Source: a virus
Lineage: Duplodnaviria; Heunggongvirae; Uroviricota; Caudoviricetes
Length of the DNA: 36,648 bases
Strand: one strand, 5' to 3'
IMG/VR virus record: IMGVR_UViG_2675903330_000001
The position numbers were made by a program, and so were the translations under genes. A model generated the notes under the pieces. That model saw nothing but the letters and a program-made list of their open reading frames with translations, was not told the DNA's origin and ran no database searches. The stretch's first letter is position 1. Each line of letters opens with the position of its first letter. Shown one piece after another: positions 1,467 to 36,648 of the stretch.

Positions 1467-1907
<441 letters not shown>

Positions 1908-1970
1908 CACCCGATTTTCCAATAAAAAAGCCCCATCACAAGGACAGGGCTATAGAATCAATCACTTACA

Positions 1971-3127: not shown

Positions 3128-3227
3128 AAATTAGATACTAAATATATACGTGAAGGATGTTGAGCTGGTCAACGTCTACGGGGGAGAACATCCCCCGCTA
3201 ACCTTTTTCTTATTTGAGGATTTACCT

Positions 3228-3329: not shown

Positions 3330-3382
3330 TTAAATCGATGAATTGAACTATAGATGATGGTCGTTTTCAAAGAGGATTATCT

Positions 3383-3556
3383 ATGGATCTTTTTGTCTAC
3401 TTTGCTACTCTGCTGTTTTTGACTATCGTCGCTGGCATTAAATTGATTTTTATATCGCTGGTGGTGTTTTTCAAATTTCTAATCGGTACGCCTTACGGCT
3501 GGGTATGCTTCTTTTTGTTTATTCTTTTTAGTTGCTGTAAAAAGGATACTAAATAA
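3383..3556 (+). CDS. small hydrophobic membrane protein (57 aa, two predicted TM helices)
   Basis: ATG with AGAGGA upstream; MDLFVYFATLLFLTIVAGIKLIFISLVVFFKFLIGTPYGWVCFFLFILFSCCKKDTK. Too short for the ORF track. Confidence 0.45.
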   Translation: MDLFVYFATLLFLTIVAGIKLIFISLVVFFKFLIGTPYGWVCFFLFILFSCCKKDTK

Positions 3557-3715
3557 TAGTGTAATCTGCCTTTTCTCCTTATGGTTATTAACAGGGGATC
3601 TTCTTTGAGGATTCCCGATTAAAAGCCATAAAAACACACTTCCAGTACAGTGTTTTCATAGTCAGGATCTATACAACATAAAAACATAACAAGTATAGAT
3701 TGAGTATTAATCCTC

Positions 3716-3740
3716 CCGCCCTTCGGGGCGGTTATTTTTC
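3716..3740 (+). terminator. rho-independent terminator
   Basis: CCGCCC-TTCG-GGGCGG hairpin followed by TTATTTTTC. Confidence 0.6.
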
Positions 3741-3816
3741 TGGCTTTAAAGAATAATGTAGCATTATGTTCATTATAACCTCATCTTTGTTGTGCAAACC
3801 TAACCTAAACTTACTA

Positions 3817-3841
3817 GGGACTCTTCGGAGTCCTTTTTTTT
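3817..3841 (+). terminator. rho-independent terminator
   Basis: GGACTC-TTCG-GAGTCC hairpin followed by T8; the T-run overlaps the stop codon of the convergent minus-strand gene 3840-4082. Confidence 0.65.
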
Positions 3842-4082
3842 ATGCAACAATTCGAAGTGTAAGTTTCTTATGTTGTGTAGGTTTAGTTTCATTTCGCCAC
3901 TCAGGGAATACATGATCCATCATAACCGCATTAGTCTCATCAATCAGCTTTAAGGACTTTCTCAACGCCTTATTATCAGCTTTAAGTGTTTTAATCTCTG
4001 ATTCCATCGCTACCATTCTTTCTTTCATTTTGGTAATTTCTAACATCAGATTACCCAGAAATTCTTTGTTTTGATTCATCAT
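3840..4082 (-). CDS. hypothetical coiled-coil protein (80 aa)
   Basis: GAGGGG RBS upstream; heptad-rich sequence (MESEIKTLKADNKALRKSLKLIDE); last gene of a minus-strand operon. Confidence 0.5.
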   Translation of the reverse strand: MMNQNKEFLGNLMLEITKMKERMVAMESEIKTLKADNKALRKSLKLIDETNAVMMDHVFPEWRNETKPTQHKKLTLRIVA

Positions 4083-4097
4083 AGATTCACCCCTCTA

Positions 4098-5117
4098 TTA
4101 AGCTGCGTATGCGTAGGCGCTGTAGTTGGTGTCATAGATAGCGTCATGCAGTGCCATATGTGCTTCGCGGATCTCGTCTTCGTTTACTTCAATCTCTTCT
4201 TGTTCTTCTTCGGTATCTTCCCAAGTGGTTTTGAATTTAGCCATAAAGTTATTGCGCAGTGTTTCAAAGTTGGTAACTGGTGCGGATTCTGCTTCAACCG
4301 GAACCGGAACTACTACCGGATCAGCTTCTTTCTGTTCTACTTCTTCACCGTTACCCCAACGATAGTTAAGGAGTTCTTCCAGTTCTTCATCAATGGATTT
4401 TTCTTCAACTGCTTCAACTTCAACCGCTGCTACTTCGAAAGTGGTTTCCTGTGCTGACAGTTCAGCTTTCAGAGATGCGTTTTCTGCTTTAACTGCTGCC
4501 ATTTCTGCTTCCAGTTCAGCAATGCGTGCGTTCAGTGCTTCAACTTCGGAAGATTCAACCACTGCAACTTCTTCTTTAACTTCTTCAACTACTACCGGAG
4601 CAACTTCTTTCTGTGCTTCTTTTTTGCAGAAGAAGGAGGAAGTAACCTGTAATGCGTGGTTGTAGAAGGAACCGCCTTTAGTGGTGTTAACAGTACCAGA
4701 AACATCTTTTACAGTGGATTCGGTAGCAACAGTACGGAAGCGTTTAGCAACTTCCTGGGTCTCTACGCCGTATTCGTTACGCTTGCTCTTGTGATGCATT
4801 ACAGCACGGAAGCCGGAAGCAGTTTTAACAACAGCGAGATAGTAAGTTTCATCGGCTTTAGCAGCACGAGCGAAGCAATAAACGGATTCACCTTCTACCA
4901 GTGTAGGTTTAACGTGACGTTTGTCGAAACGGTTAGTGATCTGCCATTCAGCACCGTCTTTGATGCCAGCATTCTGACGCATTTCGGTCAGAGTCTTACC
5001 GGATACTACTTCAAAGGATTTGTCTTGTTTGCTTGCTTTACCTTCCATGACGGTAATGTTCAGTTTGCCGTTGGATTTAATAAACAGGTTGAAGGTGATG
5101 CGCTTAGAATTTTTCAT
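4098..5117 (-). CDS. hypothetical protein (339 aa) with N-terminal globular domain and acidic Ala/Glu-rich coiled-coil
   Basis: Longest uninterrupted frame in the region, AGGAG RBS 10 nt upstream. The plus-strand ORFs over the same DNA are fragmented Ser/Thr-rich antisense artefacts. Confidence 0.6.
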   Translation of the reverse strand: MKNSKRITFNLFIKSNGKLNITVMEGKASKQDKSFEVVSGKTLTEMRQNAGIKDGAEWQITNRFDKRHVKPTLVEGESVYCFARAAKADETYYLAVVKTASGFRAVMHHKSKRNEYGVETQEVAKRFRTVATESTVKDVSGTVNTTKGGSFYNHALQVTSSFFCKKEAQKEVAPVVVEEVKEEVAVVESSEVEALNARIAELEAEMAAVKAENASLKAELSAQETTFEVAAVEVEAVEEKSIDEELEELLNYRWGNGEEVEQKEADPVVVPVPVEAESAPVTNFETLRNNFMAKFKTTWEDTEEEQEEIEVNEDEIREAHMALHDAIYDTNYSAYAYAA

Positions 5118-5162
5118 TTATAAATACTCCTGAATGCTGTGTTAGTTTTAATTGTTCATTTC

Positions 5163-5199
5163 AAGCCTCCTTTGCTGCAACAAGGGAGGCTTTTTATTT
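5163..5199 (+). terminator. hairpin plus T-run (plus-strand terminator-like element)
   Basis: AGCCTCC ... GGAGGCT stem followed by TTTTATTTTT, lying between two minus-strand genes. Confidence 0.35.
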
Positions 5200-5233
5200 T
5201 TAAAGCCATCATATAATTCTCAGTGAAAGTGGA

Positions 5234-5413
5234 TTAACAAACTTGAACGTTAATCTTTATCTGAATTTCGTATTTCTTCATTAGCTTATAGAATCCGCTT
5301 CTATCAATTCCTTCCTTCTTAAAGAAATTCTCGCCGCCTCGTTCAGTATCGCCATAAAAGCGTTTAGCAATATCAACAATCATTTCACGAGTAAACTTAA
5401 CAGGTCTAGCCAT
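5234..5413 (-). CDS. small HTH DNA-binding protein (59 aa), candidate transcriptional regulator
   Basis: ATG at 5413 with GAGGA RBS (the track start at 5428 is a TTG). C-terminal GIDRSGFYKLMKKYEI looks like a helix-turn-helix. First gene of a minus-strand operon diverging from the large intergenic region. Confidence 0.45.
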   Translation of the reverse strand: MARPVKFTREMIVDIAKRFYGDTERGGENFFKKEGIDRSGFYKLMKKYEIQIKINVQVC

Positions 5414-5981
5414 AAGTAGATTCCTCAAATGTGGATTAATAAGGACAATAAAAAGAGCTTTTCGCCCTCGATACTTCTATTTATAAAAGTCATTTCAGAA
5501 AACCCTGCAAAACCACTGTATATCTGATCAGTGGGAGCACGAATTGCTAAAGAGAAGATTAATAATTAATCAATTCGTACATTATTCAATCGAAAAAGCA
5601 CTGTGTGTTTAACCAGTGCTGTGTGTGTTAACAGTGAATCAGGGGATTTTCAGAAGTGAACAATCATTTCATGCATGTATTTATACACGAAAAAATCTTG
5701 TTTATCATCAATATGTGGATTGTTTCGAAAATTTCAACCCCTACCAATGAGAAAAAGTATAAAATAATCCTTGACAGTTGTCAATGCACTTGACCTAAGC
5801 GAGAAATGACTATCAAAATTTTTGTGTGAAAATGGCGGATAACGATTATCAACCTTTATAACCTATTATAGCACGGCGACCTTTTGATAATTCTTTTTAA
5901 ATCATGCATTTACAGCGATTTTTGGTGATTTTCCGGTTAAATAATATACAAGAATTTTCTATCAAAATTTTTGATGAAAAA

Positions 5982-6122
5982 CCTACACTACAAACCTACG
6001 CTTTAAAGGTATTGGCCTACACTACACTAGTCAGTAAACCTACACTATAACACCCTCAAACCTACACTATGAAACCCTCAAACCTACACTATGAAACCTA
6101 CACACCTACACTAACCCTACAC
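5982..6122. repeat. iteron-like array: at least 9 copies of CCTACAC within about 21-bp tandem units (AAACCTACACTATGAAACCCTC)
   Basis: Direct count of CCTACAC/CCTACGC at 5982, 5995, 6016, 6039, 6061, 6083, 6097, 6105 and 6116. Confidence 0.8.
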
Positions 6123-6700
6123 TTCAATCTCATAAGTGTATGATCTTGAAAGACATTTCACCCCACAGACCATAGAATATAAAATTCGAACTAACGTTCT
6201 CCTTTTTGCTCGTTTTCTCTCACTACGTTCAAGAAAGATCTCGCAAAAAGAATACGGCGTAGCCGTGCGCGAAGCGCCCATCAACACCTTCTAAGACCTG
6301 CAAGCAGGATTCGAAAGGGATTGGATAGTTCGCTTCGCTCACGTTCACGCCTACGGCGTTCACTCGCTTTTGAAAGGATTTTCTTAGAAAGGGATTTAAT
6401 ACTAGTTACTAACTGATTCTAGTAAACGAACGAAGTGAGTAACAATCACTTTCTAGAAAGGTATTGGTATCCCTTCGGGATTGCAACCTTCGGTTGCTAA
6501 ATTGCTTCCTGATTATAATTTCTCCAAAAGAAAGATTCTTATATTCTAAAGATACTTCTTCGTTTTGATGATGATTTAATCAAATATATGAAGGAGGGCT
6601 TTAGCCCGACTGAATCCAATCACTTCCAAATAGATAAAAAATTCTCGTTATAAATAATAGTGAACTTACTTGATTCACTTTCTTTTAGAGGATTTCCACT

Positions 6701-7150
6701 ATGATCAATACTAAAACTCCTTTCGTACTTCTGGGTCTGGACTCTGAAAACTATGGCAACTTCCATATGCTAGAAGTTTTCGCTAATCGTGGTTATAACA
6801 TCATTCGTCATTCCGAAGACTCCAACTACTCAACTGCTTTCTACGCTTTAAAACGAAATGGTCGTCCTACTGTGATCATCGACTGTTTTACTGATGAGGG
6901 TCGTCTTCAATACAACGATATTCCAGCAATTATTGTTCGTGATGATCTGCCGTTTCAAGTCCGTTCCGGTGACATTGACCTGGGTAGCTTCTTGACTCTT
7001 CGTGAACTGGATGAAGCAATGTTTAATTACGGTAAAGAAACCGCTCAGGAAGCCCCAGAACAAGATGAGGAAGACGAAGACTACGCACCAATCGCTTTCT
7101 CTTCTCACGGTGGCTTCTACGGTTACGATGAAGGCTTAGATATGCTGTAA
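6701..7150 (+). CDS. hypothetical protein (149 aa) with acidic C-terminal tail
   Basis: AGAGGA RBS; codon usage strongly biased to E. coli optimal codons; C-terminus EAPEQDEEDEDYAPIAF ... FYGYDEGLDML. Confidence 0.55.
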   Translation: MINTKTPFVLLGLDSENYGNFHMLEVFANRGYNIIRHSEDSNYSTAFYALKRNGRPTVIIDCFTDEGRLQYNDIPAIIVRDDLPFQVRSGDIDLGSFLTLRELDEAMFNYGKETAQEAPEQDEEDEDYAPIAFSSHGGFYGYDEGLDML

Positions 7151-7185
7151 GTTAGGTCAACCCTTTGGCGTCTTGTCAAGGGGTA

Positions 7186-7214
7186 TTGACAAAAATTTCT
7201 GACTTTTTTATGAT
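7186..7214 (+). promoter_or_regulatory. sigma70-type promoter (TTGACA, 17 bp, TATGAT)
   Basis: Near-consensus -35 and -10 with 17-bp spacer, 57 bp upstream of the 7271 ATG; followed by a second TTGACA and a TTGACCTAG motif that also occurs at 5787-5800. Confidence 0.5.
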
Positions 7215-7270
7215 TATCGCACTTGACAACTTTGAACCTATTTGACCTAGATTTGTAAAGAGGATGTAAC

Positions 7271-7603
7271 ATGAAAGAATTTACCATCACTAAATCCCTG
7301 TATGACTGGACTGTTAAAATCTCCGGCAAAACCGTTTCTGTAACCCCTAGCCATGTAGAAAATGATTGGGGTGTATCCCGTGAAACTATCTCCCGTAGTA
7401 TGCATGTTCCGTTTGATCTGATGACCTTAACTGGTATTCATGCAATGCTGGAAGTTCGCGAGCAATTCGAAGCTGGTAATCACAATGCGACTCCAGTTAA
7501 CAATCACCTTCTTACTAATGAAGAACGTGAAATCATCGAAAATTGGCGTTATGAATATGCGATTCCTTATTATGAAGAAGACCAAGTAGAAATCGATTGG
7601 TAA
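7271..7603 (+). CDS. hypothetical protein (110 aa)
   Basis: AGAGGA RBS, intact ORF, optimal codon usage. Confidence 0.5.
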   Translation: MKEFTITKSLYDWTVKISGKTVSVTPSHVENDWGVSRETISRSMHVPFDLMTLTGIHAMLEVREQFEAGNHNATPVNNHLLTNEEREIIENWRYEYAIPYYEEDQVEIDW

Positions 7604-7692
7604 TAAATTTCTATCATAAATAAAAATGTTCCGGTGGTGATGCCGGAACTAGGAGGATCAATATCACTAAACCGTTTAAGGGGAATTTTACT

Positions 7693-8526
7693 ATGAATAC
7701 TGTTACTACTATGAATACTGCTGTTAAAACTGCTTCCGTGTCTCTGGTTGTTGATAACGAAGTTGCAAAAATGACTCTTCGTGAAATTGCCGACCTTATT
7801 GGAGTTCGTTTTTCAAACCTTGAAACTTCTATGAACCGACTGGTTGAACGCCAAGTTATCCGAAAACCTGCAACGCAGAATTTCGAGAAAATCAATAACT
7901 TAGGGTTTGCTGTTACTGTTAAAGATTATGTGTTTGAGGGTGAGCAAGGTCGCTTAGATTCGATTGTCTTGATTGCTCAAAACGTACCGGAATTTACTCG
8001 CCAACTGGTTGACCGTTGGAATTATCTGGAAGAGAAACTGAAAACCGCCAATAATACTCCTGTTAACCCGTATGCGGACTTTGAAGAAACCGACTGGATC
8101 GAACTGGCATTAGATGAAAAACGCAAAAATAAAAAACTGATTGAGCTACACATTCGCAAATCCGTAGATAGCCATTCTATGACACGTCTGTTAGGCGCTA
8201 AAAAGGGCGCTACGAAGGTTAAACAAGCACTGACGGCCTTACGTACTGCTGGCTACATTGAGCGCGTCTATGATGAAAATAACAAGCCGTGTGGGTATGT
8301 TGCTAATGACTCTTCTCTGTCTTTCTGCCGCATGAATGCTCATTACCAGCTTGAGTTTACTGTTGATGTTCTTCCGGTGCTGGTTGAATTGGGCGTTTTG
8401 GAAGAAGAACAGAAAGCAACTCTTAAACTGCCGCAGCCAAATAACACTATTCTGATTCAAAACAAAGCTGCTAAACAGATTCGTGAATCAGGTAACGTAA
8501 TTTCCCTTGTTGATTTTGGGATCTGA
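7693..8526 (+). CDS. phage regulatory protein, Rha-like (putative antirepressor)
   Basis: AAGGGGA RBS; N-terminal MTLREIADLIGVRFSNLETSMNRLVERQ resembles the Rha-family N-terminal DNA-binding region. Confidence 0.45.
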   Translation: MNTVTTMNTAVKTASVSLVVDNEVAKMTLREIADLIGVRFSNLETSMNRLVERQVIRKPATQNFEKINNLGFAVTVKDYVFEGEQGRLDSIVLIAQNVPEFTRQLVDRWNYLEEKLKTANNTPVNPYADFEETDWIELALDEKRKNKKLIELHIRKSVDSHSMTRLLGAKKGATKVKQALTALRTAGYIERVYDENNKPCGYVANDSSLSFCRMNAHYQLEFTVDVLPVLVELGVLEEEQKATLKLPQPNNTILIQNKAAKQIRESGNVISLVDFGI

Positions 8527-8532
8527 TTAATC

Positions 8533-8562
8533 GCCCGGCGCATAATTGCGCTGGGCTTTTTT
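8533..8562 (+). terminator. rho-independent terminator
   Basis: GCCCGGCGC-ATAATT-GCGCTGGGC stem followed by T6, immediately after the 8526 stop. Confidence 0.7.
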
Positions 8563-8573
8563 GTATCTGATGC

Positions 8574-8790
8574 ATCCAGATTTGGATTTATCGGAAGAAT
8601 CAATAGGTTAGAGATGAGCGCAGTTTTGCGCCGATTGATTCAAGTTTGAATTTCTCGAAAGAATCAACCACTTAGATAGATACGCTGAACTTTAAGCACA
8701 TCTCCTCAGTTTTGAGGGCATCTATAGATCAGTCCAAATCTGGACTCATCGGAAGAATCAATGACTTAGAGATGTGCTCAGTTTTGAGCG
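8574..8790. repeat. three tandem 50-70 bp direct repeats (core TCGGAAGAATCAAT ... TTAGAGATG ... CAGTTTTG), outer copies prefixed by inverted CCAGATTTGG / CCAAATCTGG
   Basis: Copies at about 8574-8640, 8648-8720 (degenerate) and 8725-8790, lying between convergent terminators. Confidence 0.7.
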
Positions 8791-8794
8791 GATA

Positions 8795-8824
8795 TAAAAA
8801 AGGCCAACCCCGAAGGATTGGCCT
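8795..8824 (-). terminator. rho-independent terminator for the minus-strand operon
   Basis: AGGCCAA ... TTGGCCT hairpin preceded on the plus strand by A6, giving a T-run on the minus strand after the 8831 stop. Confidence 0.6.
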
Positions 8825-8830
8825 AGAGAA

Positions 8831-9061
8831 TCAAATTCCTGTTGCTTCTACCATTTCACCGTCAACCTGAACAAAGAATTTCAAATCAACTTTATGTAGG
8901 GATTTGTATAGCTGGGCTATAGATAAGCCATGCTCATTTAATACCCGTTCTTTGTTCTCTTTACCTTTCGGTGCTTGATAGTACGCTTTTACAATCGCTG
9001 CCAGTTGTTCACGATTAAAACGGGCAGGGCGACCGCGAGTAGCTTTAGTAGTCATAGTCAT
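8831..9061 (-). CDS. small DNA-binding protein (about 75 aa)
   Basis: GGAG RBS; ATG at 9061 or 9055; TKATRGRPARFNREQ followed by an HTH-like GLSIAQLYKSLHK. Confidence 0.45.
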   Translation of the reverse strand: MTMTTKATRGRPARFNREQLAAIVKAYYQAPKGKENKERVLNEHGLSIAQLYKSLHKVDLKFFVQVDGEMVEATGI

Positions 9062-9090
9062 TTTCTCCAAATTAAAGTGAATGTTCACCT

Positions 9091-9693
9091 TTATTTAGAG
9101 GACTTACATTTTATAGGAAAAAGTTCTCCATCGTCAACCGACATAAAGAACTCTGCCTTAATCCCGTACTTCTTCAACCGTGAATAGTATGTACCCCGAC
9201 TTATATCAACCTTGCGCAGCACTTCGAAGAAGGACTTAGGATCGTTGTAATAGTGGCTATATCGCACGTTAGCGAGTTCTACAAACAATTCCCTTGTATC
9301 ACCATAGCCTTTCTTAAAAGCCTCGTTACGATAGCGTGTAATAGCGTGATTCAATCTCTTCTGTTTCAACACTTCTCGGATCGGCTTCCACTGCAACCGA
9401 TAGATAGGACCGTCATCAATGCGATAATAACGCTTGATATCAAAATCAAACCAATCTCGGACTCTCCGAAACTCTGTATGTGATGTTCTATGCTTCTTAA
9501 AGAAGTTGTGAACGTCTGTATAACCATTATCGCGGTAAAATTCTATTAAAATCTCTTTCGCTTCCTCACGGCTAAACCCAGATGTTGTGTAGTCGGTCTT
9601 CTTGTGATGGTGCTTAACTGGCAAACGATATTCATGATCGGTACAAGACAAGGCTAATTCTAATTCATCTCTTTCTTGCTGATTAATTAGCAT
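9091..9693 (-). CDS. hypothetical HTH-containing protein (200 aa)
   Basis: Transcribed divergently from terL; C-terminal [23 protein letters not shown] is HTH-like; an internally repeated basic/aromatic segment. Confidence 0.45.
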
Positions 9694-9780
9694 ACACCCT
9701 CCTTAAATCTTAATACCCGTATTTATCAAAAAATCAACAATTTAATAAATACCTTCATATTTCGTAATGAGGGTAATTAC

Positions 9781-11685
9781 ATGAAACTAATTTCTAATAA
9801 GGCCAAATTAAAAAAGATTCTTAAAAATGCAGCCAAATATATTACGCCACCGCCTAAACTCCTTCCATCGGAATGGTGCGAATCTAATATGGTGCTGGTA
9901 GATGGTCCTCAAGCTGGGGATAAAGTTAAATTGCTGTCATTCCAGAAAGGTATGATTGATGCTCCTTTCCTTGAGAACAAGAAAAAGTATGTTCTGATGA
10001 CCAGTGCGCAGATCGGAAAGACTACCATCCTGAACGGTATCCTGTTTAACCAGATGGCTAACGATCCATGCAATATGATTATCGGACAATCAACCGCTAA
10101 AGAAATGTCTCAATATCTCGCTGGTAAGATCCGACCGTCTATCGAAGCATGTGATGCATTAAAAGACGTGGTTACAGACAAGAATGATCGCAATTCTGTT
10201 AATAACAACAATCAGCTCCAGCTCAAATCAAACCACTTCCTTTATATGGTATCGCTTACTAGTCCATCAACCCTGCGCGGTAAGACTGCAAAGGTCGGAC
10301 TACTAGACGAAATCGATGCTGCTACAGCCTCAGAAGAAGGTGATCCGGTGGCACTGGCTGCTAACCGTTTAACTACCTTTGGCGATGAAGGCCGATTAGT
10401 CGTATCCAGTACCCCGACCAGTAAGCTGGGAAGCATTAACCAGCAATGGTTATCAAGTGATATGCGTATGTTTTTTGTTCCGTGTCCTCATTGCGGGGAA
10501 CACCAGGTGATCGAGTGGGAAAACGTTCAATTTGAATGGCGTAACATCGATGGTAAGAACTTACCCGATCCTGATACCGCTCGTTATATTTGCCCCCACT
10601 GTAAGAACGCATGGACAGAAGGGGAACGAATCAGGGCAGTAGCACAAGGCGAGTGGAGAGCAACCCGTGAAAGTGAAGTAGCCGGATTCTGGATTAGCCG
10701 TCTGTATTCACCTTTCAGCACGATCCGCGCTTGTGTGGTTGATTTTAGTCATGCGTGGCAATCCTTTGATTTACAATCATTTTATAACACCGTGTTAGGC
10801 AAAGTATACGACGATCAGGACACGGCAGTAGAAGCAAATGAACTGGAACAACTCAAAACAGATGTTTCTATCGAGAATATCCCTGATGACGTGATTTTCT
10901 TGTGTGCGGGTACTGACCAGCAATTAGATCGCGCAGAAACTACAATCATGGGCGTGGCAAAGGATAAGATTTATATTCTGGATCATCGCAGCTTTTACGA
11001 TCATAACTGTGAACGATATGAATCCCCTGTATGGGATAGATTAATCAACTTCCATAAAACCAAATTTACTACTGTATCTGGTGATCGTGTTCCTATGCTC
11101 GCCAGCTTCCTTGATACATCGAACGGTCGATTCACTCAAGCTGGATACCGTATTTGCGGCAAGTGGAAGAACTTACACGCTATCAAAGGTAGTTCTGCTG
11201 GTAACGCTCCGATCATTCCGGTTAAACCTACCCGCACAGGTGGTCATGAATTGCTTATGTTGGGTGTTAATGTGGGTAAAACTGCATTTCGTGAAATGTT
11301 GGCTAGGAACCTGAAAGATAATCCTCATATTGGCTTAGAAATATCAGACACCGTTCCTGATGATTATCTCGATCAGCTTTTAAGTGAATCTGTCAAGCGT
11401 ACTACTACTGGCGTGAGATGGGTAAAGAACCCAGGCGTTAGGAACGAGGCGCTCGACTGCGCCGTGTATGCTACAGCGGCTTCTCGCTACGTCCTTTCAA
11501 AAATGTCATGGGATAAACTCATTGCAATGAAAGACAGCTTAAACAGCGTTAAAGAAGAACCCGTAAAAGCTCCTGAATCGCAATCTGACGAGCAAATCGA
11601 AGAAACTAAGCCAATCACACGACCGCAACGTCAAAACATCGCCAGACGCCCAAATAGAGGCCGTAGCTGGGTAACATCGTTCTAA
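9781..11685 (+). CDS. terminase large subunit, lambda gpA-like
   Basis: GAGGG RBS; Walker A-like [10 protein letters not shown]; paired Cys motifs CPHCGEHQ ... CPHCKNAW; 634 aa; lies upstream of the portal gene. Confidence 0.8.
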
Positions 11686-11757
11686 TAACTCGCCGTCCTT
11701 CGGGACGGCTTACTCCTAAATATTGTTAATCCAATAACAATTAAATAAGGGGTAATT

Positions 11758-12255
11758 ATGAGTTTAGAACTAATTCCCTTAGTAATTCGTAAAGGCGAAA
11801 AAATCACGCTGGCGAATGAAGAGGGTGTAACAATTCAGGTAGGAAATAATAATAAAGGTATCATTTATCAGGTTGATGATACTCCGGCTAATCACGAGAT
11901 TAAAACCTTAGATTTTGCCGATGGTAAATATACCATCGTAATAACTTTGGATGAAGAACTAGTGTCAATGCAGCAATTGACTGTATTGCCCGTCTTTGCA
12001 AAACAATCCAAAAAACAGTATCTGCGGGAAACTATCGCCTTAATCGAGCAAGTTATTTTCGCCCGTTTATCTGGGGACGAAGCCGCATTATCTCAAATGA
12101 CCGTGAAAGGAAATACTTTCGCCTATGAGTCATTGGCTGTTCTCCAGACTCTAAAAGTCGATTATGAACGTCAACTGTCTAAATTAATTCAAGCCGAACG
12201 ACGTAAACAGGGAATTAGCCCGATTAAAAATATCAAATTACGTCTTACGCGATAA
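11758..12255 (+). CDS. hypothetical protein (165 aa) between terminase and portal
   Basis: Intact ORF with RBS; position is analogous to lambda gpW but no motif recognised. Confidence 0.45.
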   Translation: MSLELIPLVIRKGEKITLANEEGVTIQVGNNNKGIIYQVDDTPANHEIKTLDFADGKYTIVITLDEELVSMQQLTVLPVFAKQSKKQYLRETIALIEQVIFARLSGDEAALSQMTVKGNTFAYESLAVLQTLKVDYERQLSKLIQAERRKQGISPIKNIKLRLTR

Positions 12256-12265
12256 GGGGTAAATC

Positions 12266-13777
12266 ATGTTTAATCTTTTTCGACGCAAAAAGGCGGTAGA
12301 AACTCCAGTTAAAACTAATCACCGCCAGCAACAACAAAAAATCTTTATCGACAAACAAGTAGAAAAATTCCAGAAAGATTTGTCTAAGCGTTCTTTGGGC
12401 TTAGTCGGTGATCGAATTGATGGACAGCTTCAACAAGATACTATCACCGGAACGTTCAATAAGGCTCTCAAATCGAACGGTAAGCGCCTTTATGATCAGG
12501 GTCGTACTCTGGCCTTAAACACTTCCGTAGGCAGTCGATACACGCAATACATCACCGATATGGTGGTAGGTACTGGCCTAGATCCGAAGCCGTCAATCGT
12601 TAAATCAAATGGCAAACTTGATAGCGCACTGAATAAGCAGATCGAGAATGCTTTCTGGAAGTGGGCGCAGAATGCTAAACGCTTCTCTCGTAACGGTCGC
12701 TTTAACTTCCGTGAATTGCTGGTAATGGCTGAACGTGAGCGCGTTATGGGTGGTGAGTGCTTCATAGTTTTAACCAAAGAAAACAATGAGTTAAATGTTT
12801 CTATCCTGTCTGCTGATAAGTGCGACTGGACGCTCAACCGTGAAGTAAGCAAAGAACGTGCGATCTATCAGGGGATCGAGTATGACGTAGAAACAATGAA
12901 GCCCGTAGCATACTGGTTTCGTAAAGTCAACCTACTGACTCAGACTTACACAGGTGATAACTATCGTGTAGAAGCATCGCAAGTATGCCATTACTATCAA
13001 CCACTTACCGCCGAATCCCTGCGTGGTGTGACTGACTTCCTGCCAGTGATTAAGGATATCGCACATCAAGACGCATTCCGCGAAACTGCAATTATCCAGA
13101 AACGCATTGCAGCTAGCTCTATGGGCTTTATCGAGCGTCCGAAAGATTCTGGTGACGATTTTGATACTGGTGAAGATGATGAACAATATCAAGCGCCGGA
13201 AGTAGTACAGGATTTTGCACCTGGTACTATTCAGGAATTACCGGAAGGGGCAACGATCAAGAGCATCCAGGCGACGCAAAGCGGTGATGACTTTAACAGC
13301 TTCAATGATGCGATGTTTACTAGCGTATCAATGGGCTTAGGCGTGTTTAAACAGGGCTTGACTGGTGACACTAGCCAGATCAACTACTCAGCCGCACGTT
13401 TCGGTGAATTAACCCAGCGCACACGAGTTAAAGCACTGCAAAACAAATTAATTGAAACAGTGGTATCGCCAATTTTCGAAGCATATCTACGCCATTATTC
13501 CGCTCGTGGTATTGTTCCGATTCGTATTACTGCAATTCCGCATATTATCGATAACACTACTATTATTCGTCCGCGTTTTGAATCCGTCGATCCAATTAAA
13601 GACGTAAACGCCGAGATTGCTTTAATTGATAAAGGACTTAAATCACGTACTGCCGTTATATTAGAACGTGGTGATGACCCTGAAAAAGTATTCTCAGAGA
13701 TTCAAGCCGAAAAGAGCGCACTAAATATTATCGTTAATGGCGAGGGTGAAGAAAAAAATTCCCCAGCCGATCCCTAA
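12266..13777 (+). CDS. portal protein, lambda gpB family
   Basis: 503 aa; position after terL; overall resemblance to the lambda-family portal; acidic mid-region. Confidence 0.7.
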   Translation: MFNLFRRKKAVETPVKTNHRQQQQKIFIDKQVEKFQKDLSKRSLGLVGDRIDGQLQQDTITGTFNKALKSNGKRLYDQGRTLALNTSVGSRYTQYITDMVVGTGLDPKPSIVKSNGKLDSALNKQIENAFWKWAQNAKRFSRNGRFNFRELLVMAERERVMGGECFIVLTKENNELNVSILSADKCDWTLNREVSKERAIYQGIEYDVETMKPVAYWFRKVNLLTQTYTGDNYRVEASQVCHYYQPLTAESLRGVTDFLPVIKDIAHQDAFRETAIIQKRIAASSMGFIERPKDSGDDFDTGEDDEQYQAPEVVQDFAPGTIQELPEGATIKSIQATQSGDDFNSFNDAMFTSVSMGLGVFKQGLTGDTSQINYSAARFGELTQRTRVKALQNKLIETVVSPIFEAYLRHYSARGIVPIRITAIPHIIDNTTIIRPRFESVDPIKDVNAEIALIDKGLKSRTAVILERGDDPEKVFSEIQAEKSALNIIVNGEGEEKNSPADP

Positions 13778-17631: not shown

Positions 17632-20600
17632 ATGCAGTCGATCCAATTTAAACGAACAAATGTTTCTGGCAAAAAACCAACGCCGGAACAATTACAGGTC
17701 GGTGAGGTAGCAATCAACCTTAAAGACCATGTTATTTTCACCAAAGACCGAGATCATGAAGTAGTTCAAATCTCTGTTTCTCCTGAAACTCACGCGGCAC
17801 TAGAATCTAAAGTTGATGCTAACAAACAAGAATTGGATAGCACAATTGCAGTAAATGACCGCAATATTCACGCTAAAGTAGATGAAATTAAACAAACTAC
17901 TGATGCAACCATCGCAGCAAATCACGCAGAAATTAACAATAAAGTTGATGTAATTAAACGCGAAACCGACGCGACAATCGAGGCCAATAAAAATAAAGCT
18001 GCTTCCGATCTTGCTGGTGTTAAAGCTGAATTGTCGGATACCATCAACGCTAATAAAAATGCGGCTGCTGTAGCAACTCAGGAACTGGACACCCGCATCA
18101 ATAAAAAAGTTGATGATATTAAATCCCGTACCGATGCAACCATCGTAAGCAATCACAAAGCAATCAATGACAAAGTTGATTTGATTAAGGCAGAAACTGA
18201 CCGCACTATCGCAGCAAATCACGCCTATGCGGAAAATCAGTTAACTGACACCTACAATAACCTTACTGGTGTGATTGCAGCCAATAAGCAAGAGGCAGCG
18301 GATAACGTCGCAGCATTAACCCGTGATGTTGAAGCCAAAAATACAGCAATTCATAGCAAAGTTGACAATAACAAGTCTTACACTGATTCTGAATTGGCAC
18401 GCTTAGAAAGCCGTATTGATGCAGCCGATGGATCAAGTGATGGTAAGTACATCAAAAAGCACGTAAACACTTGCACTGATGGCTATTTGCTGTCTAAGAC
18501 CGCAAACCCTTTTGATGATCCGAGTGCTCTTAATCTTGATTACTTTGGTGCATTTCGCATGAATGACCTGGCGGGTCATATTGCAATGATCTTGCATGTT
18601 CCGCACCCATCCGGCGTTAATCATGCTCGTGGTTTTGAGTTCACTTATGGGTCTAATCCGGTTCATACGGTAAGAACATACGGCTATGATGAATTGGGAC
18701 ATTTGGCATATTCTCACCGCATGTATCATGAAGGTGATAAACCTACTCCGGCTGAAATTGGCGCATATTCGAAAGCAGAAATTGACCGACTGTTCCAGAA
18801 GACGCTTAATTTTGGTATCGAGGGTGGTTGGTTTAAACTAGGCACTTTGACAATGCCACAACAACACGGTCGCACGGCTAAGATCCGTTTGGTTGGTGGT
18901 AACGGTTATAACGTAGGACATAATGGACAAGCCAATATTATCGAATTGGTGATTCGATGCGGCAACAATAGCCCGAAAGGTGTTGTATTCAATGCGTATT
19001 ATACTATTTGGCATTATGAACAACATTTTTGCGCTATTCCAACCGATGGCGACAATTACGATCTTTACGCTTACTACGGTGCACATACAGGATTTGTTTT
19101 AGCAGAATATCAAGTTTCTTCCGGTGGTGTTTCTTTAAACCTGTTGGATACTCCTGAATACCTGGGCGGTGAAAAACCTGTTGCAGATGAAATTTTTGAT
19201 GCTCTTAACATTTCATCGTTCAATAACTTTAGCAACCGTGGAACGTTAAATTTTGGTGGAAACCATCAAGGTCAATATGATATTGAGCATTTAAACGAAC
19301 AACCGACAAATGCTAAAAAGATGTTGCGTCGCTTCCGTAGTTGTGCTCCTGCCACTATCTGGCATGAGACAGTTGATGATAACAAGTATCGTCTTGCTAC
19401 TGGATACGAAGATACAAATCAGGAATTATTGCTGTCAGCAACATCCGGGTTACATATCAAGAAATTAACATTGGATGGCGGTGTTACTGGAAATTCTGGT
19501 ATTGATATTCGTCGAGGACCAAATGAAGCAAGCCATTTTAATTTCATGGATTATCGCACTGGACAAGATGTTCGTAATGGCTGGTTTGGCTTCGGTGATG
19601 GAACAACCAAAGATTTTATTTGGTGGAACGATAACGGTCAAAACTCGATAAACCTGATTGAAGACGGTGAATTACATATTACTGGCGGTAGAGGCCAGAA
19701 AATTGTAATGAATAGCGAAGTGGCATTATCTGAAAATGCTCGTTTGGCTGTCAAAGGTGGTAACTATGGTTTAATCCTTCGTAATGATGGTTCTAGCTTC
19801 CATATTCTTACTACCGATTTAAAAGATTCCTTTGGGACGTGGAATACTCGTAGACCATTTAGTTATGATTTCGCCGAAGGTGGATTAGATCTAGGTGGCA
19901 CAGCTACCGCACGCTGTTTACATCTGGGAATTGATGGTAGCACCCGCATCGAAGATAATATGGTGTTTAGATCAGGGTCTCGTCAGTCAATGGACTATAT
20001 TGAATTAATCCATTGGGGTAACAGTAATACAGGACGCAATAACGTTTTGAGTATGCGAGATTCCAAAGGTTTCTTGGCTGAATTTGAACGCGTGGGGGGT
20101 ACTAACGGCGTTAAAACCAGATTCTTTGGCGAAACATTCACTGATGGTACATTATACCTAAATCAGATGAATAATAGCTCTGAACGATTCTCTATTAATA
20201 ATTGGGGAAATTCAGAAGTTGGTCGCGCGGCAGTGATGGAAGTCGGTGATTCCAAAGGTTATCACTTCTATACTGAACGTAGGACAGATAACAGTTTGAT
20301 GTTTGATGTTGCTGGCGCTTTTACTGTGCATGGACCTTCCGGGATTACTATCAAAAACTCTGCTGGTGCTCGCCACGTCTGGTTTAGAGATGATAGCGAT
20401 ACGGAAAAGGCTGTTATCTGGGCTACAGATGAGGGTATTTTACATATTCGCAATAACCACGGTGGACAATTTACACATCACTTCCAGGGCGCGATGATTA
20501 AACTGGAAGGGCGTGTTCCTTATGCCGCAGATCAAGGACTTATCCGTGGTGAGGTTTCTGGTGGTGCATATGTTGCATGGAGAGACCGACCTGCTGGTTT

Positions 20601-21156
20601 GTTGGTTGACTGTCAACAAAGCGTTGATAGTGCTCATGCTATTTGGAAAGCGGTTGATTGGGGGCGTAACTACATCGCTGCTATGGACGTTCATTGTCCC
20701 GGTGATAGTAATAATACTGCGGCAGCGGTTCTTCATGTTCAGGGTGCTGATTATCAATTCCATGCAAGTGGAGAATTTCATGCCACTGGTAACGGAAACT
20801 TTAACGATGTTTATATTCGTTCCGATCGTCGTCTGAAAATTAATGTTGAAGATTACGAAGAAAATGCGGTGGATAAGGTAAATAAACTCAAAGTTAAAAC
20901 CTACGATAAAGTTAAATCTCTTAATGACCGAGAAGTTATAGGTCATGAGATTGGTATTATCGCACAGGATTTACAAGAGGTATTACCGGAAGCTGTTAAA
21001 ACCGCAAAAATTGGTGGTTTTGATAACCCAGAAGAAATTTTAACAATTTCAAACTCCGCAGTGAACGCGCTTTTAATTAAAGCGGTCCAAGAAATGAGCG
21101 AAGAAAATAAACTTCTTCGTGAACGTCTTGCTGCAATTGAAGCTAAATTAGGGTAA
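17632..21156 (+). CDS. side (L-shaped-type) tail fiber with C-terminal intramolecular chaperone domain
   Basis: 1174 aa; N-terminal about 21-aa repeats (KVD-IK--TDATI-AN); C-terminus SDRRLKINVEDYEENAVDKVNKLKVKTYD ... LLRERLAAIEAKLG is typical of the self-cleaving endosialidase-type chaperone (peptidase S74). Confidence 0.75.
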   Translation: MQSIQFKRTNVSGKKPTPEQLQVGEVAINLKDHVIFTKDRDHEVVQISVSPETHAALESKVDANKQELDSTIAVNDRNIHAKVDEIKQTTDATIAANHAEINNKVDVIKRETDATIEANKNKAASDLAGVKAELSDTINANKNAAAVATQELDTRINKKVDDIKSRTDATIVSNHKAINDKVDLIKAETDRTIAANHAYAENQLTDTYNNLTGVIAANKQEAADNVAALTRDVEAKNTAIHSKVDNNKSYTDSELARLESRIDAADGSSDGKYIKKHVNTCTDGYLLSKTANPFDDPSALNLDYFGAFRMNDLAGHIAMILHVPHPSGVNHARGFEFTYGSNPVHTVRTYGYDELGHLAYSHRMYHEGDKPTPAEIGAYSKAEIDRLFQKTLNFGIEGGWFKLGTLTMPQQHGRTAKIRLVGGNGYNVGHNGQANIIELVIRCGNNSPKGVVFNAYYTIWHYEQHFCAIPTDGDNYDLYAYYGAHTGFVLAEYQVSSGGVSLNLLDTPEYLGGEKPVADEIFDALNISSFNNFSNRGTLNFGGNHQGQYDIEHLNEQPTNAKKMLRRFRSCAPATIWHETVDDNKYRLATGYEDTNQELLLSATSGLHIKKLTLDGGVTGNSGIDIRRGPNEASHFNFMDYRTGQDVRNGWFGFGDGTTKDFIWWNDNGQNSINLIEDGELHITGGRGQKIVMNSEVALSENARLAVKGGNYGLILRNDGSSFHILTTDLKDSFGTWNTRRPFSYDFAEGGLDLGGTATARCLHLGIDGSTRIEDNMVFRSGSRQSMDYIELIHWGNSNTGRNNVLSMRDSKGFLAEFERVGGTNGVKTRFFGETFTDGTLYLNQMNNSSERFSINNWGNSEVGRAAVMEVGDSKGYHFYTERRTDNSLMFDVAGAFTVHGPSGITIKNSAGARHVWFRDDSDTEKAVIWATDEGILHIRNNHGGQFTHHFQGAMIKLEGRVPYAADQGLIRGEVSGGAYVAWRDRPAGLLVDCQQSVDSAHAIWKAVDWGRNYIAAMDVHCPGDSNNTAAAVLHVQGADYQFHASGEFHATGNGNFNDVYIRSDRRLKINVEDYEENAVDKVNKLKVKTYDKVKSLNDREVIGHEIGIIAQDLQEVLPEAVKTAKIGGFDNPEEILTISNSAVNALLIKAVQEMSEENKLLRERLAAIEAKLG

Positions 21157-21194
21157 TTGGAAAGCGGGGAGAAATCTCCGCTAAGGATTCTTAT

Positions 21195-21491
21195 ATGGGA
21201 TATTGGGTAAGTAGTGAAATTAATACTAAAATCGATGCTTTAAAATGGCATGTATTTGATATTCCTAACGGCTATGGTACTGCTCGTGCTGGTGTCGCTG
21301 TAATGCGTCATAATGCTGGTGGTGGGTGGTCTGATGCACATATTAACGTAGATGGTTTGACCGTTGCTCGTCGTCGTGGTGGGACCAATTGGGGATCTAC
21401 TATAAATTCGTTTGTTCCTGCTGGCTGCACCGTCTCCTTTGGTTTAGGGGGTGAAGGTGGTGTTGAATATTTTAAATTCATGGAGTTTTAA
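21195..21491 (+). CDS. small protein, paralog 1 of a tandem triplet (98 aa)
   Basis: AAGGA RBS; shares W-x-FDIPNG(Y/W), Gly-rich loops and a C-terminal YFKF-type motif with the next two genes. Confidence 0.6.
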   Translation: MGYWVSSEINTKIDALKWHVFDIPNGYGTARAGVAVMRHNAGGGWSDAHINVDGLTVARRRGGTNWGSTINSFVPAGCTVSFGLGGEGGVEYFKFMEF

Positions 21492-21493
21492 TT

Positions 21494-21799
21494 ATGGCTG
21501 GATGGATAAATCAAAGAATGTCAAACGCTATTAGTATTTGGGCTAATGGTGGATATTTTGATATCCCCAACGGCTGGGTTACTGATTCATGCGGAATTGT
21601 TTTTGCTCATATGGAAGCCATTAACGGTGCTGGTGATCTTGATTCTGAATTGGCTGTAAATGGATTGATTGAATCAGGTCATCATGCTGGTGATGCTGGG
21701 AGTTGGGGCGCTAGTTCTTTAGTTGGCGCTGGTGCTACCGTTAGCTTTACATTGGGTAAAGGTAGTTTGCATTATTTTAAATTCAGGAGAATGCACTAA
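21494..21799 (+). CDS. small protein, paralog 2 of a tandem triplet (101 aa)
   Basis: GGAG RBS; starts 3 nt after the upstream stop; same motifs. Confidence 0.6.
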   Translation: MAGWINQRMSNAISIWANGGYFDIPNGWVTDSCGIVFAHMEAINGAGDLDSELAVNGLIESGHHAGDAGSWGASSLVGAGATVSFTLGKGSLHYFKFRRMH

Positions 21800-22101
21800 T
21801 GGCATTTTGGGTAGATGGCGCTTTGGGGAATAGGGCGGGTAAAGCAAATCAAGGATGGTTTGATATTCCTAACGGTTGGACAGCCGACGCTTTCGGGACT
21901 ATTTCATTCTGTGCTCATTCTTCCGGTGGTGGCGGTGGTGACTCTGAATTGCTTATTCATGGTTTGTGTGTTTCTGGAAGCCATAAGGGTCATGATTGGG
22001 GACAGATTCATTCTTGTATTGCACCGCAAGGGGCGGTAATTACCGTTAGCACAAATAGGGGGATCGCTCATCTTCGTTATAGACGTTTGAGCAACCGCTA
22101 A
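21799..22101 (+). CDS. small protein, paralog 3 of a tandem triplet (100 aa)
   Basis: AGGAGA RBS; start overlaps the upstream stop (TAATG); same motifs, with a GGGGG loop. Confidence 0.6.
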   Translation: MAFWVDGALGNRAGKANQGWFDIPNGWTADAFGTISFCAHSSGGGGGDSELLIHGLCVSGSHKGHDWGQIHSCIAPQGAVITVSTNRGIAHLRYRRLSNR

Positions 22102-33755: not shown

Positions 33756-34754
33756 ATGAATACTACTTTAGCAAAGGATATCGAATTTACCGCAAAAAGC
33801 AAACGTGCGACCCCTCCGGTCGAATATGAAACCAGAATCATTAAAGTTTGTCAAGCGCATGGATGGTTATACAGTGGTTTTGTGCTTCCTGTAAAGAAAC
33901 CATTCCAGAACACCAAAGTTTGCATAGAAGTTAACGGAAAGGTTAAAACGCCATGTATTAGTCATGTTCTAACTGGTCAGTTTACTGGCAAAGATAGAGT
34001 ATCACCGCCTAAGAAGAAGTTTAGATTTACCGAAGAAGAACACTTAGAAAACGCTCGCAAGTTCTACAAGCCGATAGGGTGGGATGTGTTAGGTCTGGCT
34101 GAACCTTATCAGGGTGTTGACACTAAACTAATTCTTCGTTGTAAGTGCCACGGAAAGATTCACAAGAAAGGTGATTTACACAATAACCGCAGACAAGGCG
34201 GGTTAACATGCCCTTTGGTTAGGGGTGTACTTAAATCAATTCAGAATGGTAGAAAACAGGTTATCAGAAACAAGTTTGCACAGCGCCCTATGCACTTTTA
34301 TCTAATTCGTGTTGGCGAGAAGTTTTTCAAATATGGAATTACCACTCGCAAAGATCCGATGCAACGGGTAAGAGAACACCAGAAGCACACCAGCGAGAAA
34401 ATCACCTTTGAATGCTCACATTTGTTTAACATTGGATGGAAAGCTGGTGATTTAGAAATGGGGATTAAAAAGAATATTCAGGGCAAGAAAATCCCACGTA
34501 AGGTAATGAATAGCGGATTCACAGAAACGCTACCGATTAGCAAGCTGAAAGATGTTAAATCATTCATCAATGAATACATCCACACCAACCCATCTAAGCC
34601 AATGTATTTTGATGATACCAACGCAATCAATCTGAACAACTACATTAGTGATGAAGACATAGAACGAGATTTATCGCAGTGGATGAATGCACCGTTAGCT
34701 GATTTAACACCGGAAGACCTAGAACTCGATTTAAGCCCTTTAGAGGCTCTTTAA
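33756..34754 (+). CDS. hypothetical protein with Cys/His-rich N-terminal region and GIY-YIG-like (T5orf172-type) C-terminal domain
   Basis: GAGGA RBS; FYLIRVGEKFFKYGITTRKDPMQRVREH resembles the GIY-YIG / T5orf172 core; several Cys and His upstream (CQAHGW, CIEVNG, RCKCHGKIHKKGD, LTCP). Confidence 0.45.
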   Translation: MNTTLAKDIEFTAKSKRATPPVEYETRIIKVCQAHGWLYSGFVLPVKKPFQNTKVCIEVNGKVKTPCISHVLTGQFTGKDRVSPPKKKFRFTEEEHLENARKFYKPIGWDVLGLAEPYQGVDTKLILRCKCHGKIHKKGDLHNNRRQGGLTCPLVRGVLKSIQNGRKQVIRNKFAQRPMHFYLIRVGEKFFKYGITTRKDPMQRVREHQKHTSEKITFECSHLFNIGWKAGDLEMGIKKNIQGKKIPRKVMNSGFTETLPISKLKDVKSFINEYIHTNPSKPMYFDDTNAINLNNYISDEDIERDLSQWMNAPLADLTPEDLELDLSPLEAL

Positions 34755-34770
34755 TACAATTAAATTAAAA

Positions 34771-34790
34771 AGGGGTACAGATGTACCCCT
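34771..34790. terminator. bidirectional terminator hairpin between convergent genes
   Basis: GGGGTAC-AGAT-GTACCCC with an A-run upstream and T-rich sequence downstream; serves the integrase on the minus strand and gene 33756-34754 on the plus strand. Confidence 0.6.
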
Positions 34791-34827
34791 TAAAGTGTTT
34801 AGCTCGTTATACGTCGATTTAGGCCGC

Positions 34828-36495
34828 TTAAATTCCAAATTCCTGTAATGGACCTGGTATTTCCTCTTCTGGTTTCCAGTCTTTATCTGTCAGCATGTCT
34901 AAACATGGATGCAGAACAAGCCCGTTACTCTCCAGAATCTGCCTATCATTGATAGTTTTCAAATCGACAAAGATTTGTCCTTTCCTCGTTCCTCTTGAAT
35001 TTTCTATTACAACTCTCTGGGTCTTTCCATCGATGTATTCCAGCACAAACAAGTTTTTATTTCTGTCAATCCTGCTACACCCGATCCGCTTTAGAGCTTG
35101 CTTAATCTTAAACCGGACCTTTAGTCGTTCCTCGTTATAAACATCTTCTAAATCAAATTCTGCGAGCTTCTCCCAGCCTTGAGAGTCCACAGAATACATT
35201 TCCTCTTCTGCCATCTTGATCTGATTGTAGAGTGTTTCACGCTCGCTATTGAGGGTAGTAATCTGATCGGCTAGCTCCTTCGTTGCTCCTGTCATAGCAG
35301 AAAGGGCAATCAGGTTATCAATCTTGCGTGATATCTCATCAACCTGTACTTTCAACGCCGGAACCGGATTAGCCTTGTCCTCAGCAATCCATATTTTATC
35401 AGCCAGCAATTGCAATACAGCTTTCTCTAATTGATCACCTCGAAAACTCCAGTTTGGATGCTCGCAATCAAGTCTACGTGAACGGGTCGCATCACATGTA
35501 TAACGATACTGGTCAGAACGTTTGTTCGTTCCCTTCACTTTAACCATAGCGCAACCGCAATGATCACATTTCAATAGGCCAATACCACTAAGCAGGGGGA
35601 TCGGTTTAACTTCTTCCTTGTCTCCAAAGTTCCATGCTCTAGCACCAATATTTTTCTTAAGGTGATAGAACGTAGCATCATCAATAACACGAGGGTAATA
35701 ATCCTTTAACTCATAGTTAACACCATCTACAGAGACTTCCTTGATACCAATCAAAGCGCGGGTATGGAACAACCTTTCAACCATTGCCCGTGACCATTTT
35801 GAATGCTTCTTATTACTAACCGCTGGTGGCGGTGTATATGTCTCGTTAAGGTGATCCAGTATTTCGGCGGTTGAACGTCCATTCTTCCGTAATTCCACAA
35901 TCTCCTGAACAACAGGGAAGTATGTAGGATGAGGCAACACATAACCGGAAGTGGTATCCGTCCACCACATATTCTTTCCAACTTCCTCGATTGCCACTGC
36001 CGGATTCTGGGGATTTTCTTGATGGGCTTTAATCTTAATCAGTGCGCTTGAGTTAGTACGATTGCGCTTAGTCTGGCTTTCCTCATTACCACGGATGAAT
36101 AAAAGGATGGAGAACATCAGGTCCATCGGGTTAGCGGTAACAGTATCCAGCGAGTAGATCTTGTTATCCATGCCAGTAACAATGGTTATCCCCCTACGGA
36201 TGATTGAAAGGAATAACTCCTGCGCACTGACAATATCGGCACGGGATAAGCGGTCCAAGTTTTCAATGAATAGCCAGCTACCAACAGGAACGGATCTACC
36301 AATTGCATCAAGGAAACGAGATAGCGCCCCTGTTTTGGAGTTAGCACCCTTAAACGCAGATACACCCAGATCCTGATAATCATTTACCAGTTCAAGGTCA
36401 TACTTTGCCGCAACCTCTCTCGCCATCCTGATTTGTCGTTCATAACTCGAACCATCATTCTGACGCATAGACGAGAAGCGAATATACGAATACAG
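34828..36495 (-). CDS. large serine recombinase (prophage integrase), 5' end interrupted by IS1
   Basis: Resolvase-type catalytic region, recombinase domain, zinc ribbon (CDHCGC ... CDATRSRRLDCEH) and coiled-coil. The catalytic Y-x-R-x-S motif (LYSYIRFSS) lies upstream of the first ATG (36468) and runs directly into the IS1 terminus at 36496 with no start codon in between. Confidence 0.8.
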   Translation of the reverse strand: MYSYIRFSSMRQNDGSSYERQIRMAREVAAKYDLELVNDYQDLGVSAFKGANSKTGALSRFLDAIGRSVPVGSWLFIENLDRLSRADIVSAQELFLSIIRRGITIVTGMDNKIYSLDTVTANPMDLMFSILLFIRGNEESQTKRNRTNSSALIKIKAHQENPQNPAVAIEEVGKNMWWTDTTSGYVLPHPTYFPVVQEIVELRKNGRSTAEILDHLNETYTPPPAVSNKKHSKWSRAMVERLFHTRALIGIKEVSVDGVNYELKDYYPRVIDDATFYHLKKNIGARAWNFGDKEEVKPIPLLSGIGLLKCDHCGCAMVKVKGTNKRSDQYRYTCDATRSRRLDCEHPNWSFRGDQLEKAVLQLLADKIWIAEDKANPVPALKVQVDEISRKIDNLIALSAMTGATKELADQITTLNSERETLYNQIKMAEEEMYSVDSQGWEKLAEFDLEDVYNEERLKVRFKIKQALKRIGCSRIDRNKNLFVLEYIDGKTQRVVIENSRGTRKGQIFVDLKTINDRQILESNGLVLHPCLDMLTDKDWKPEEEIPGPLQEFGI

Positions 36496-36648
36496 GGTAA
36501 TGACTCCAACTTATTGATAGTGTTTTATGTTCAGATAATGCCCGATGACCTTGTCATACAGCTCCACCGATTTTGAGAACGACAGCGACTTCCGTCCCAG
36601 CCGTGCCAGGTGCTGCCTCAGATTCAGGTTATGCCGCTCAATTCGCTG
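36496..36648 (-). mobile_element. insB: IS1 (partial; insB-proximal inverted repeat and 3' end of insB), continues beyond the window
   Basis: GGTAATGACTCCAACTTATTGATAGTGTTTTATGTTCAGATAATGCCCGATGAC ... is the reverse complement of the IS1 right end; the minus strand encodes the InsB C-terminus (...[20 protein letters not shown]...). Confidence 0.9.

Follow-up and report, generated by a model that had tools for sequence, protein, structure and literature searches.

The locus described here raises the question of whether a prophage can still leave its host chromosome when the gene for its integrase runs directly into the end of an insertion sequence. The window (the whole stretch of 36,648 nucleotides that was analysed) is an entire short-read draft contig, which begins in the serX-ghrA-ycdX region of Escherichia coli and breaks inside an IS1 element at its far end. 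An initial annotation made from the sequence alone had placed IS1 within the first codons of a serine integrase gene, upstream of the catalytic serine, and had proposed that the native start was gone and that the prophage was probably unable to excise. The coordinates it gave proved correct throughout, and the features that matter to the argument are collected in Table 1.

Table 1. Features of the integrase-IS1 junction and of the attachment sites; positions are those of the window unless another locus is named.
Feature	Position	Strand	Basis
Large serine recombinase (prophage integrase) gene, codons 5-559 and stop, without the first 4 codons	34828..36495	-	Pfam, 13 relatives
Earliest ATG/GTG/TTG downstream of the in-frame stop (M14 in the intact protein)	36466..36468	-	ORF list, codon table
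Catalytic serine codon tcg, S12 of the intact protein	36472..36474	-	3GUV alignment, Pfam coordinates, codon table
9 bp adjoining the IS1 end, CTGTATTCG, codons 5-7	36487..36495	-	homology to intact relatives begins here
GGAG in the IS1 terminal repeat, then CTG of codon 5 8 nt on; hypothetical non-AUG start	36493..36507	-	duplex energy
IS1 right end	36496..36648	-	alignment to annotated 768-bp IS1, 99.3% to IS1A/IS1B
IS1 terminal inverted repeat IRR	36496-36518	-	within the right end of IS1
Final 45 codons of insB	stop TAA 36513-36511	-	translation
attL; ycdX to 1882, phage DNA beyond, AA crossover at 1881-1882	1851..1912	+	base-by-base comparison with K-12 ycdX and relatives' attR
attR of a relative	L001 6709-6770		comparison of att sites

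The gene itself is readily assigned to a family. In the program-made list, in which a frame opens at the first ATG, GTG or TTG after a stop codon, it appears as an ORF of 546 amino acids from 36468 to 34828. Three Pfam domains score well over their curated cut-offs, namely Resolvase (PF00239) and, C-terminal to this catalytic domain, Recombinase (PF07508, E = 3.8e-9 in the window ORF) and Zn_ribbon_recom (PF13408, E = 1.2e-10). With catalytic, recombinase and zinc beta-ribbon domains all present, the encoded protein is, by its three-domain architecture, a large serine recombinase. The integrases of Bxb1, phiC31, TP901-1 and A118 combine the same three domains with a nucleophile in an N-terminal R-x-S motif, a crossover of 2 bp and an attP with dyad symmetry. 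Similarity of the E. coli ycdX integrase to solved structures is distant, since the whole protein has no match among them at E <= 0.001 and the catalytic domain alone has a single PDB match, the resolvase-family recombinase 3GUV (E = 5e-4). In the databases, the 546-residue protein carries the accession CTS28419.1 and the name 'site-specific invertase; DLP12 prophage' (Escherichia coli). This name is misleading, as the ycdX prophage is unrelated to DLP12 and the protein is its large serine integrase in truncated form. A literature search on this prophage and its integrase found no paper mentioning ycdX, and no experimental characterisation of the E. coli integrase family (ycdX and hicB/ydcR sites) was found in the literature.

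What has been separated from the gene can be read from its relatives. When window positions 34700-36648 were compared with complete E. coli genomes, 55 records matched over at least 80% of the query, and nearly all of these matches run out at base 1796 of the query, equivalent to window base 36495, the last before IS1. All 13 intact relatives encode 559 amino acids, start with MKTK directly followed by LYSYIRFSSM, and carry the N-terminus MKTKLYSYIRFSSM (also written MKTKLYSYIRFSSMRQ); their identity to the window copy ranges over 87-99.5%, and they occupy two chromosomal sites. The remainder of the window ORF is undamaged, with 99.5% amino-acid identity to an intact 559-residue relative. The integrase cluster at 90% identity has 975 members, almost all of 559 amino acids among those read, and an exact look-up of the neighbouring 332-residue protein returned ten loci, each with an intact 559-residue integrase and none of them belonging to the source strain. 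An exact look-up of the truncated integrase returned only a 3.5-kb contig from the Logan collection.

The integrases that are 87-93% identical (L003, L007, L010, L011, L012 and L014) belong to prophages that lie beside ydcR in a truncated hicB and not in ycdX; in these 21-kb loci the integrase gene is at 11073-12752. Integrases of the ycdX and ydcR/hicB sites form a natural pair of closely related enzymes with different target sites.

Homology between the intact relatives and the window stops exactly at 36495/36496. Past 36495, read backwards, the relatives continue as AAA ACT AAA ATG, such that ATGAAAACTAAA is directly joined to CTGTATTCG, and their intact copies read ggaaatggt ATG AAA ACT AAA up to the break and CTG TAT TCG TAT ATT CGC TTC TCG TCT ATG after it. 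Alignment with these prophages thereby recovers both the native N-terminus, MKTK, and the point of insertion: the 13 relatives place IS1 between codons 4 and 5, within the first integrase codons as had been proposed. What IS1 cuts off, when it follows codon 4 in this way, amounts to 12 coding bases, the ribosome-binding site and everything upstream, so the native start and ribosome-binding site are indeed no longer joined to the rest of the gene.

The sequence on the other side of the break is IS1 to the base. Only 153 bp of the element lie in the window before the sequence stops inside it. This segment ends at the canonical terminus (...GTTGGAGTCATTACC / ...AAGTTGGAGTCATTACC) as in a complete annotated IS1, and its terminal inverted repeat, GGTAATGACTCCAAC..., is identical to that of the complete copy. 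It shares right terminus, insB C-terminus and an AT-rich target with IS1A/IS1B, and it differs by one mismatch in 153 bp from the nearest IS1 copy among 5,426 complete E. coli genomes. The element lies in the orientation of the integrase gene. IS1 prefers AT-rich targets, and the AT content of the site (64-67%, against 56.5% for the whole integrase gene) agrees with this preference. Given that a precise IS1 terminus meets a precise break in homology, a chance pattern is ruled out.

A contig that has wrongly been run on into a repeat would be another concern, because a short-read draft contig does finish in a repeat here. The same junction occurs in the Logan assembly of run ERR134555, in the 3.5-kb contig, which ends 29 nt into IS1. 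Two different assemblers thus gave the same junction, which speaks against an artefact, although the second assembly probably derives from the same reads as the deposited contig and not from an independent isolate. Furthermore, the break matches the canonical IS1 terminus to the base and lies in an AT-rich target, as in real transposition. We therefore regard an assembly artefact as extremely improbable. The exact right junction is absent from the 5,426 complete E. coli genomes, the GTDB species representatives, IMG/VR and the JGI metagenomes.

Under a simple insertion, CTGTATTCG is the predicted 9-bp target-site duplication, and its second copy is expected beyond the window. The predicted left junction would then read ...ATGAAAACTAAACTGTATTCG joined to GGTGATGCTGCCAAC... 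(also written GGAAATGGTATGAAAACTAAACTGTATTCG joined to GGTGATGCTGCCAACTTACTG), and no such junction is present in IMG/VR or among the GTDB representatives when duplications of 0 to 14 bp are allowed. A complete and annotated IS1 of 768 bp in another E. coli strain (ETEC1738, locus L003) served as a control and carries a 9-bp duplication, GATTCCTTA, on both sides.

The junction might also be one end of an IS1-mediated rearrangement (an adjacent deletion, an inversion or a recombination between two IS1 copies), in which case two or three small genes, attR and the 3' part of ycdX would have been deleted or moved. The draft contig ends inside IS1, the element is well known to cause adjacent deletions, and substrate for such events is ample: 4,960 of the 5,426 complete E. 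coli genomes carry IS1, with a median of 10 places per genome. However, nothing speaks positively for a rearrangement, short-read contigs stop at any multi-copy insertion sequence whatever follows, and IS1 most often inserts simply and duplicates 9 bp, as the control copy did. We consider a rearrangement unlikely. Even if one had occurred, the effect on the integrase would be unchanged, and with attR missing excision would be impossible too.

Whichever way the far side of IS1 is arranged, the location of the active site decides how much the integrase has lost. Alignment to 3GUV sets its motif YTRVST (KVYLYTRVSTSIQIEGYSLEAQ) against YIRFSS (KLYSYIRFSSMRQNDGSSYERQ), which identifies the conserved arginine as R10 and the nucleophilic serine as S12 (codons R10 to S12 at 36480-36472). 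The Pfam Resolvase profile matches an intact relative from residue 6 (residues 6-153, profile positions 2-134, E = 9.8e-15) and the window ORF from profile position 12 only (12-134, E = 5.6e-11), with profile positions 2-11 lost. Profile coordinates and structural alignment thus both bear out the initial assignment of the nucleophile to the Y-I-R-F-S motif. Codons R10 and S12, kept in all 13 relatives, lie upstream of M14, the only ATG, GTG or TTG, and no canonical start precedes M14 after the insB stop. The ORF that opens there consequently lacks the nucleophilic serine of the R-x-S motif in its translated product. Loss of the nucleophile abolishes catalysis in serine recombinases, and the predicted product from M14 of this member of the large serine recombinase family should be non-functional.

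This argument would fail if M14, at the head of MRQNDGSS, were the native start and a downstream serine were used, such that nothing had been lost. Some intact copies have in fact been annotated by PGAP from an internal methionine, as with the 533-residue 'recombinase zinc beta ribbon domain-containing protein' of ETEC1739. However, the ETEC1739 frame is open and conserved from MKTK, MKTKLYSYIRFSS is kept in 13 of 13 relatives, which all start at MKTK and not at MRQNDGSS, and both the Pfam profile and the 3GUV alignment make S12 the nucleophile. The proposal that M14 is the native start is refuted by these comparisons, and we assign it virtually no probability.

Similarly, we rejected the idea of independent truncations in other strains, as the shorter proteins (533 amino acids in ETEC1739) reflect annotation choices of start codon on an intact ORF. 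The RefSeq start of the ETEC1739 integrase (L002 4129-5808) is an internal methionine that omits the catalytic serine, which is an annotation error. Two further matches in complete E. coli genomes (H7 and H25) have the same product name as the ETEC1739 copy.

Even the truncated product is not expected to be made in quantity. The insB stop codon lies in the integrase frame, as the initial annotation had stated, which makes an InsB-integrase fusion impossible, and no ATG, GTG or TTG occurs between this TAA and M14. M14 itself is without a Shine-Dalgarno sequence, with a duplex energy of +0.6 kcal/mol with the 16S 3' end, whereas nine out of ten further phage genes taken from the window have -4 to -12 kcal/mol. 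No sigma-70-like promoter was found in 36200-36648 on either strand. Given the missing Shine-Dalgarno sequence and the lack of a promoter, efficient synthesis of even a catalytically dead product is unlikely, and from these sequence features we conclude that the integrase is almost certainly not made in the carrying strain.

There is one route by which some active enzyme could nonetheless arise. On transcripts that run out of IS1, ribosomes might start at codon 5 (CTG), or at an in-frame ATT in the IS1 repeat, with the GGAG of the IS1 end as Shine-Dalgarno sequence; the product would lack only MKTK, would keep Arg10 and Ser12, and might support rare excision. The spacing of 8 nt is ideal, and the duplex energy of -5.9 kcal/mol is stronger than at the native integrase site (-3.3 kcal/mol) and falls inside the range of the other phage genes. 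In addition, IS1 and the integrase gene point the same way, and the Pfam Resolvase model starts at residue 5-6, such that the four lost residues fall outside the domain model. Against this stand the absence of a promoter-like site near the junction, the weak transcription and polarity of IS1, and the fact that CTG and ATT initiate in E. coli at roughly 0.1-1% of the level of ATG. Low-level production of integrase by this route is, in our judgement, quite improbable. The further proposition, that the insertion has by chance rebuilt a start for trace amounts of integrase without MKTK, with excision that is rare and tied to IS1 transcription, strikes us as very improbable.

A different sequence element precedes the integrase gene in intact relatives. 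As seen at L001 5811-5860 (minus strand), a hairpin rich in GC and with a T-run behind it, gcccctatcgttataatacgcggtaggggcgttttt, lies approximately 14 nt before the integrase ribosome-binding site and has TATAAT in its loop.

The integrase lesion should be viewed against the state of the remaining prophage. The window is identical to K-12 ycdX up to position 1882 and then diverges, and at the far end of the prophage relatives resume ycdX at that very point, which supports the attachment site in ycdX that had been proposed. The attB, attL and attR sequences have only the dinucleotide AA (window 1881-1882) in common. attB lies inside ycdX (…catcccggaAAtcccaaatatg…), and the reconstructed attP (...gatattagggAAcccgaacgtag...) has dyad-symmetric arms, gtgttattgtggg and cccccaataacac. 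The att sites are short, cross over at 2 bp and include an attP of dyad symmetry; as judged from these bases, attL, the partner that the integrase would require for excision, is intact and the layout is that expected of a serine integrase. Relatives of the prophage are held by 64 of the 5,426 complete E. coli genomes (approximately 1%), and those in 12 complete genomes cover 81-92% of its first 24 kb in 4-9 aligned pieces at 92-95% identity. Besides the IS1 insertion, no damage was seen in the integrase ORF, attL or the first 24 kb as compared.

Of the ten largest ORFs that separate attL from the large terminase, PHROGs and Pfam searches recognised just two, a small terminase and an anti-repressor-like protein; a second recombinase, an excisionase or a directionality factor was not found among the ten. 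The two recognised genes lie at 2561-3127 and 7693-8526, respectively, in the approximately 8 kb from attL to the large terminase (window 1883-9700), a region that holds almost no other recognisable gene and yielded neither a repressor nor a replication gene nor a directionality factor.

Other parts of the prophage have features of their own. When positions 1900-26000 were searched against 50,697 phage records, a tail-fibre stretch gave the sole DNA similarity, and outside it the prophage has no close relative among sequenced phages. This stretch, at approximately 18500-22100 (a tail-fibre ORF at 17632-21156 and the small ORFs after it), is 85-94% identical to the long-tail-fibre distal-subunit region of T4-like (T-even) phages. 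The similarity suggests a host-range module that has been exchanged between a temperate phage and virulent myoviruses. Small nuclease genes (GIY-YIG, and homing-endonuclease-like with NUMOD3) are present in some relatives and absent from others within the tail and lysis genes (window 33756-34754, L001 2005-2586, L006 2510-3283 and L012 2519-3286). The 332-residue ORF beside the integrase gene is called a GIY-YIG nuclease in some genome annotations and has no Pfam match in precomputed gene tables.

Taken together, we consider it highly probable that an IS1 copy has transposed between codons 4 and 5 of the integrase gene, leaving a null or extremely leaky integrase and a prophage that does not excise by itself. 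By this account, the element would have entered the 5' end of the gene in the gene's own orientation, and codons 5-559 would be parted from their ATG, ribosome-binding site and upstream DNA by no less than the 768-bp element. A fusion protein would be precluded by the in-frame insB stop, and the first canonical start left would be M14, which is without a Shine-Dalgarno sequence and past the active-site residues Arg10 and Ser12. Such an allele would be a null or would leak to an extremely small extent. Serine integrases are the catalysts of integration and, together with a directionality factor, of excision as well. Because excision requires the integrase and its nucleophile, the ycdX prophage should no longer be able to excise unaided. 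Neither attL nor the remainder of the gene nor the collinear phage genes have decayed further, which makes a recent insertion probable. A related integrase from a second prophage may act in trans, which is conceivable because some genomes carry two members of this prophage family.

That prophages become defective when an insertion sequence enters their integrase gene is familiar. The present case resembles the IS-disrupted integrases of defective or 'locked-in' prophages of E. coli and Shigella, of which we take the IS629-carrying prophages of O157:H7 Sakai to be an example, in that a multi-copy insertion sequence occupies the recombinase gene, the rest of the prophage is kept and autonomous excision is expected to be lost. 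It differs in that the usual enterobacterial integrase is a tyrosine recombinase, whereas the gene hit here encodes a large serine recombinase, and in that the element sits at the extreme 5' end, after codon 4, with the coding sequence nearly complete. A literature search for precedents of an IS-disrupted integrase returned nothing specific enough to cite.

The IS1 insertion in this integrase gene is real but is a mutation of an ordinary kind. Its significance is local: in the strain that carries it, an otherwise complete-looking ycdX prophage is predicted to be unable to excise itself, which is relevant to anyone inducing, curing or tracking the phage. The analysis also corrects the name under which the protein was deposited. 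As by-products, it provides the exact native N-terminus, the AA crossover and the sequences of attB, attL, attR and attP for an uncharacterised family of serine integrases that is present in approximately 1% of complete E. coli genomes at two chromosomal sites.
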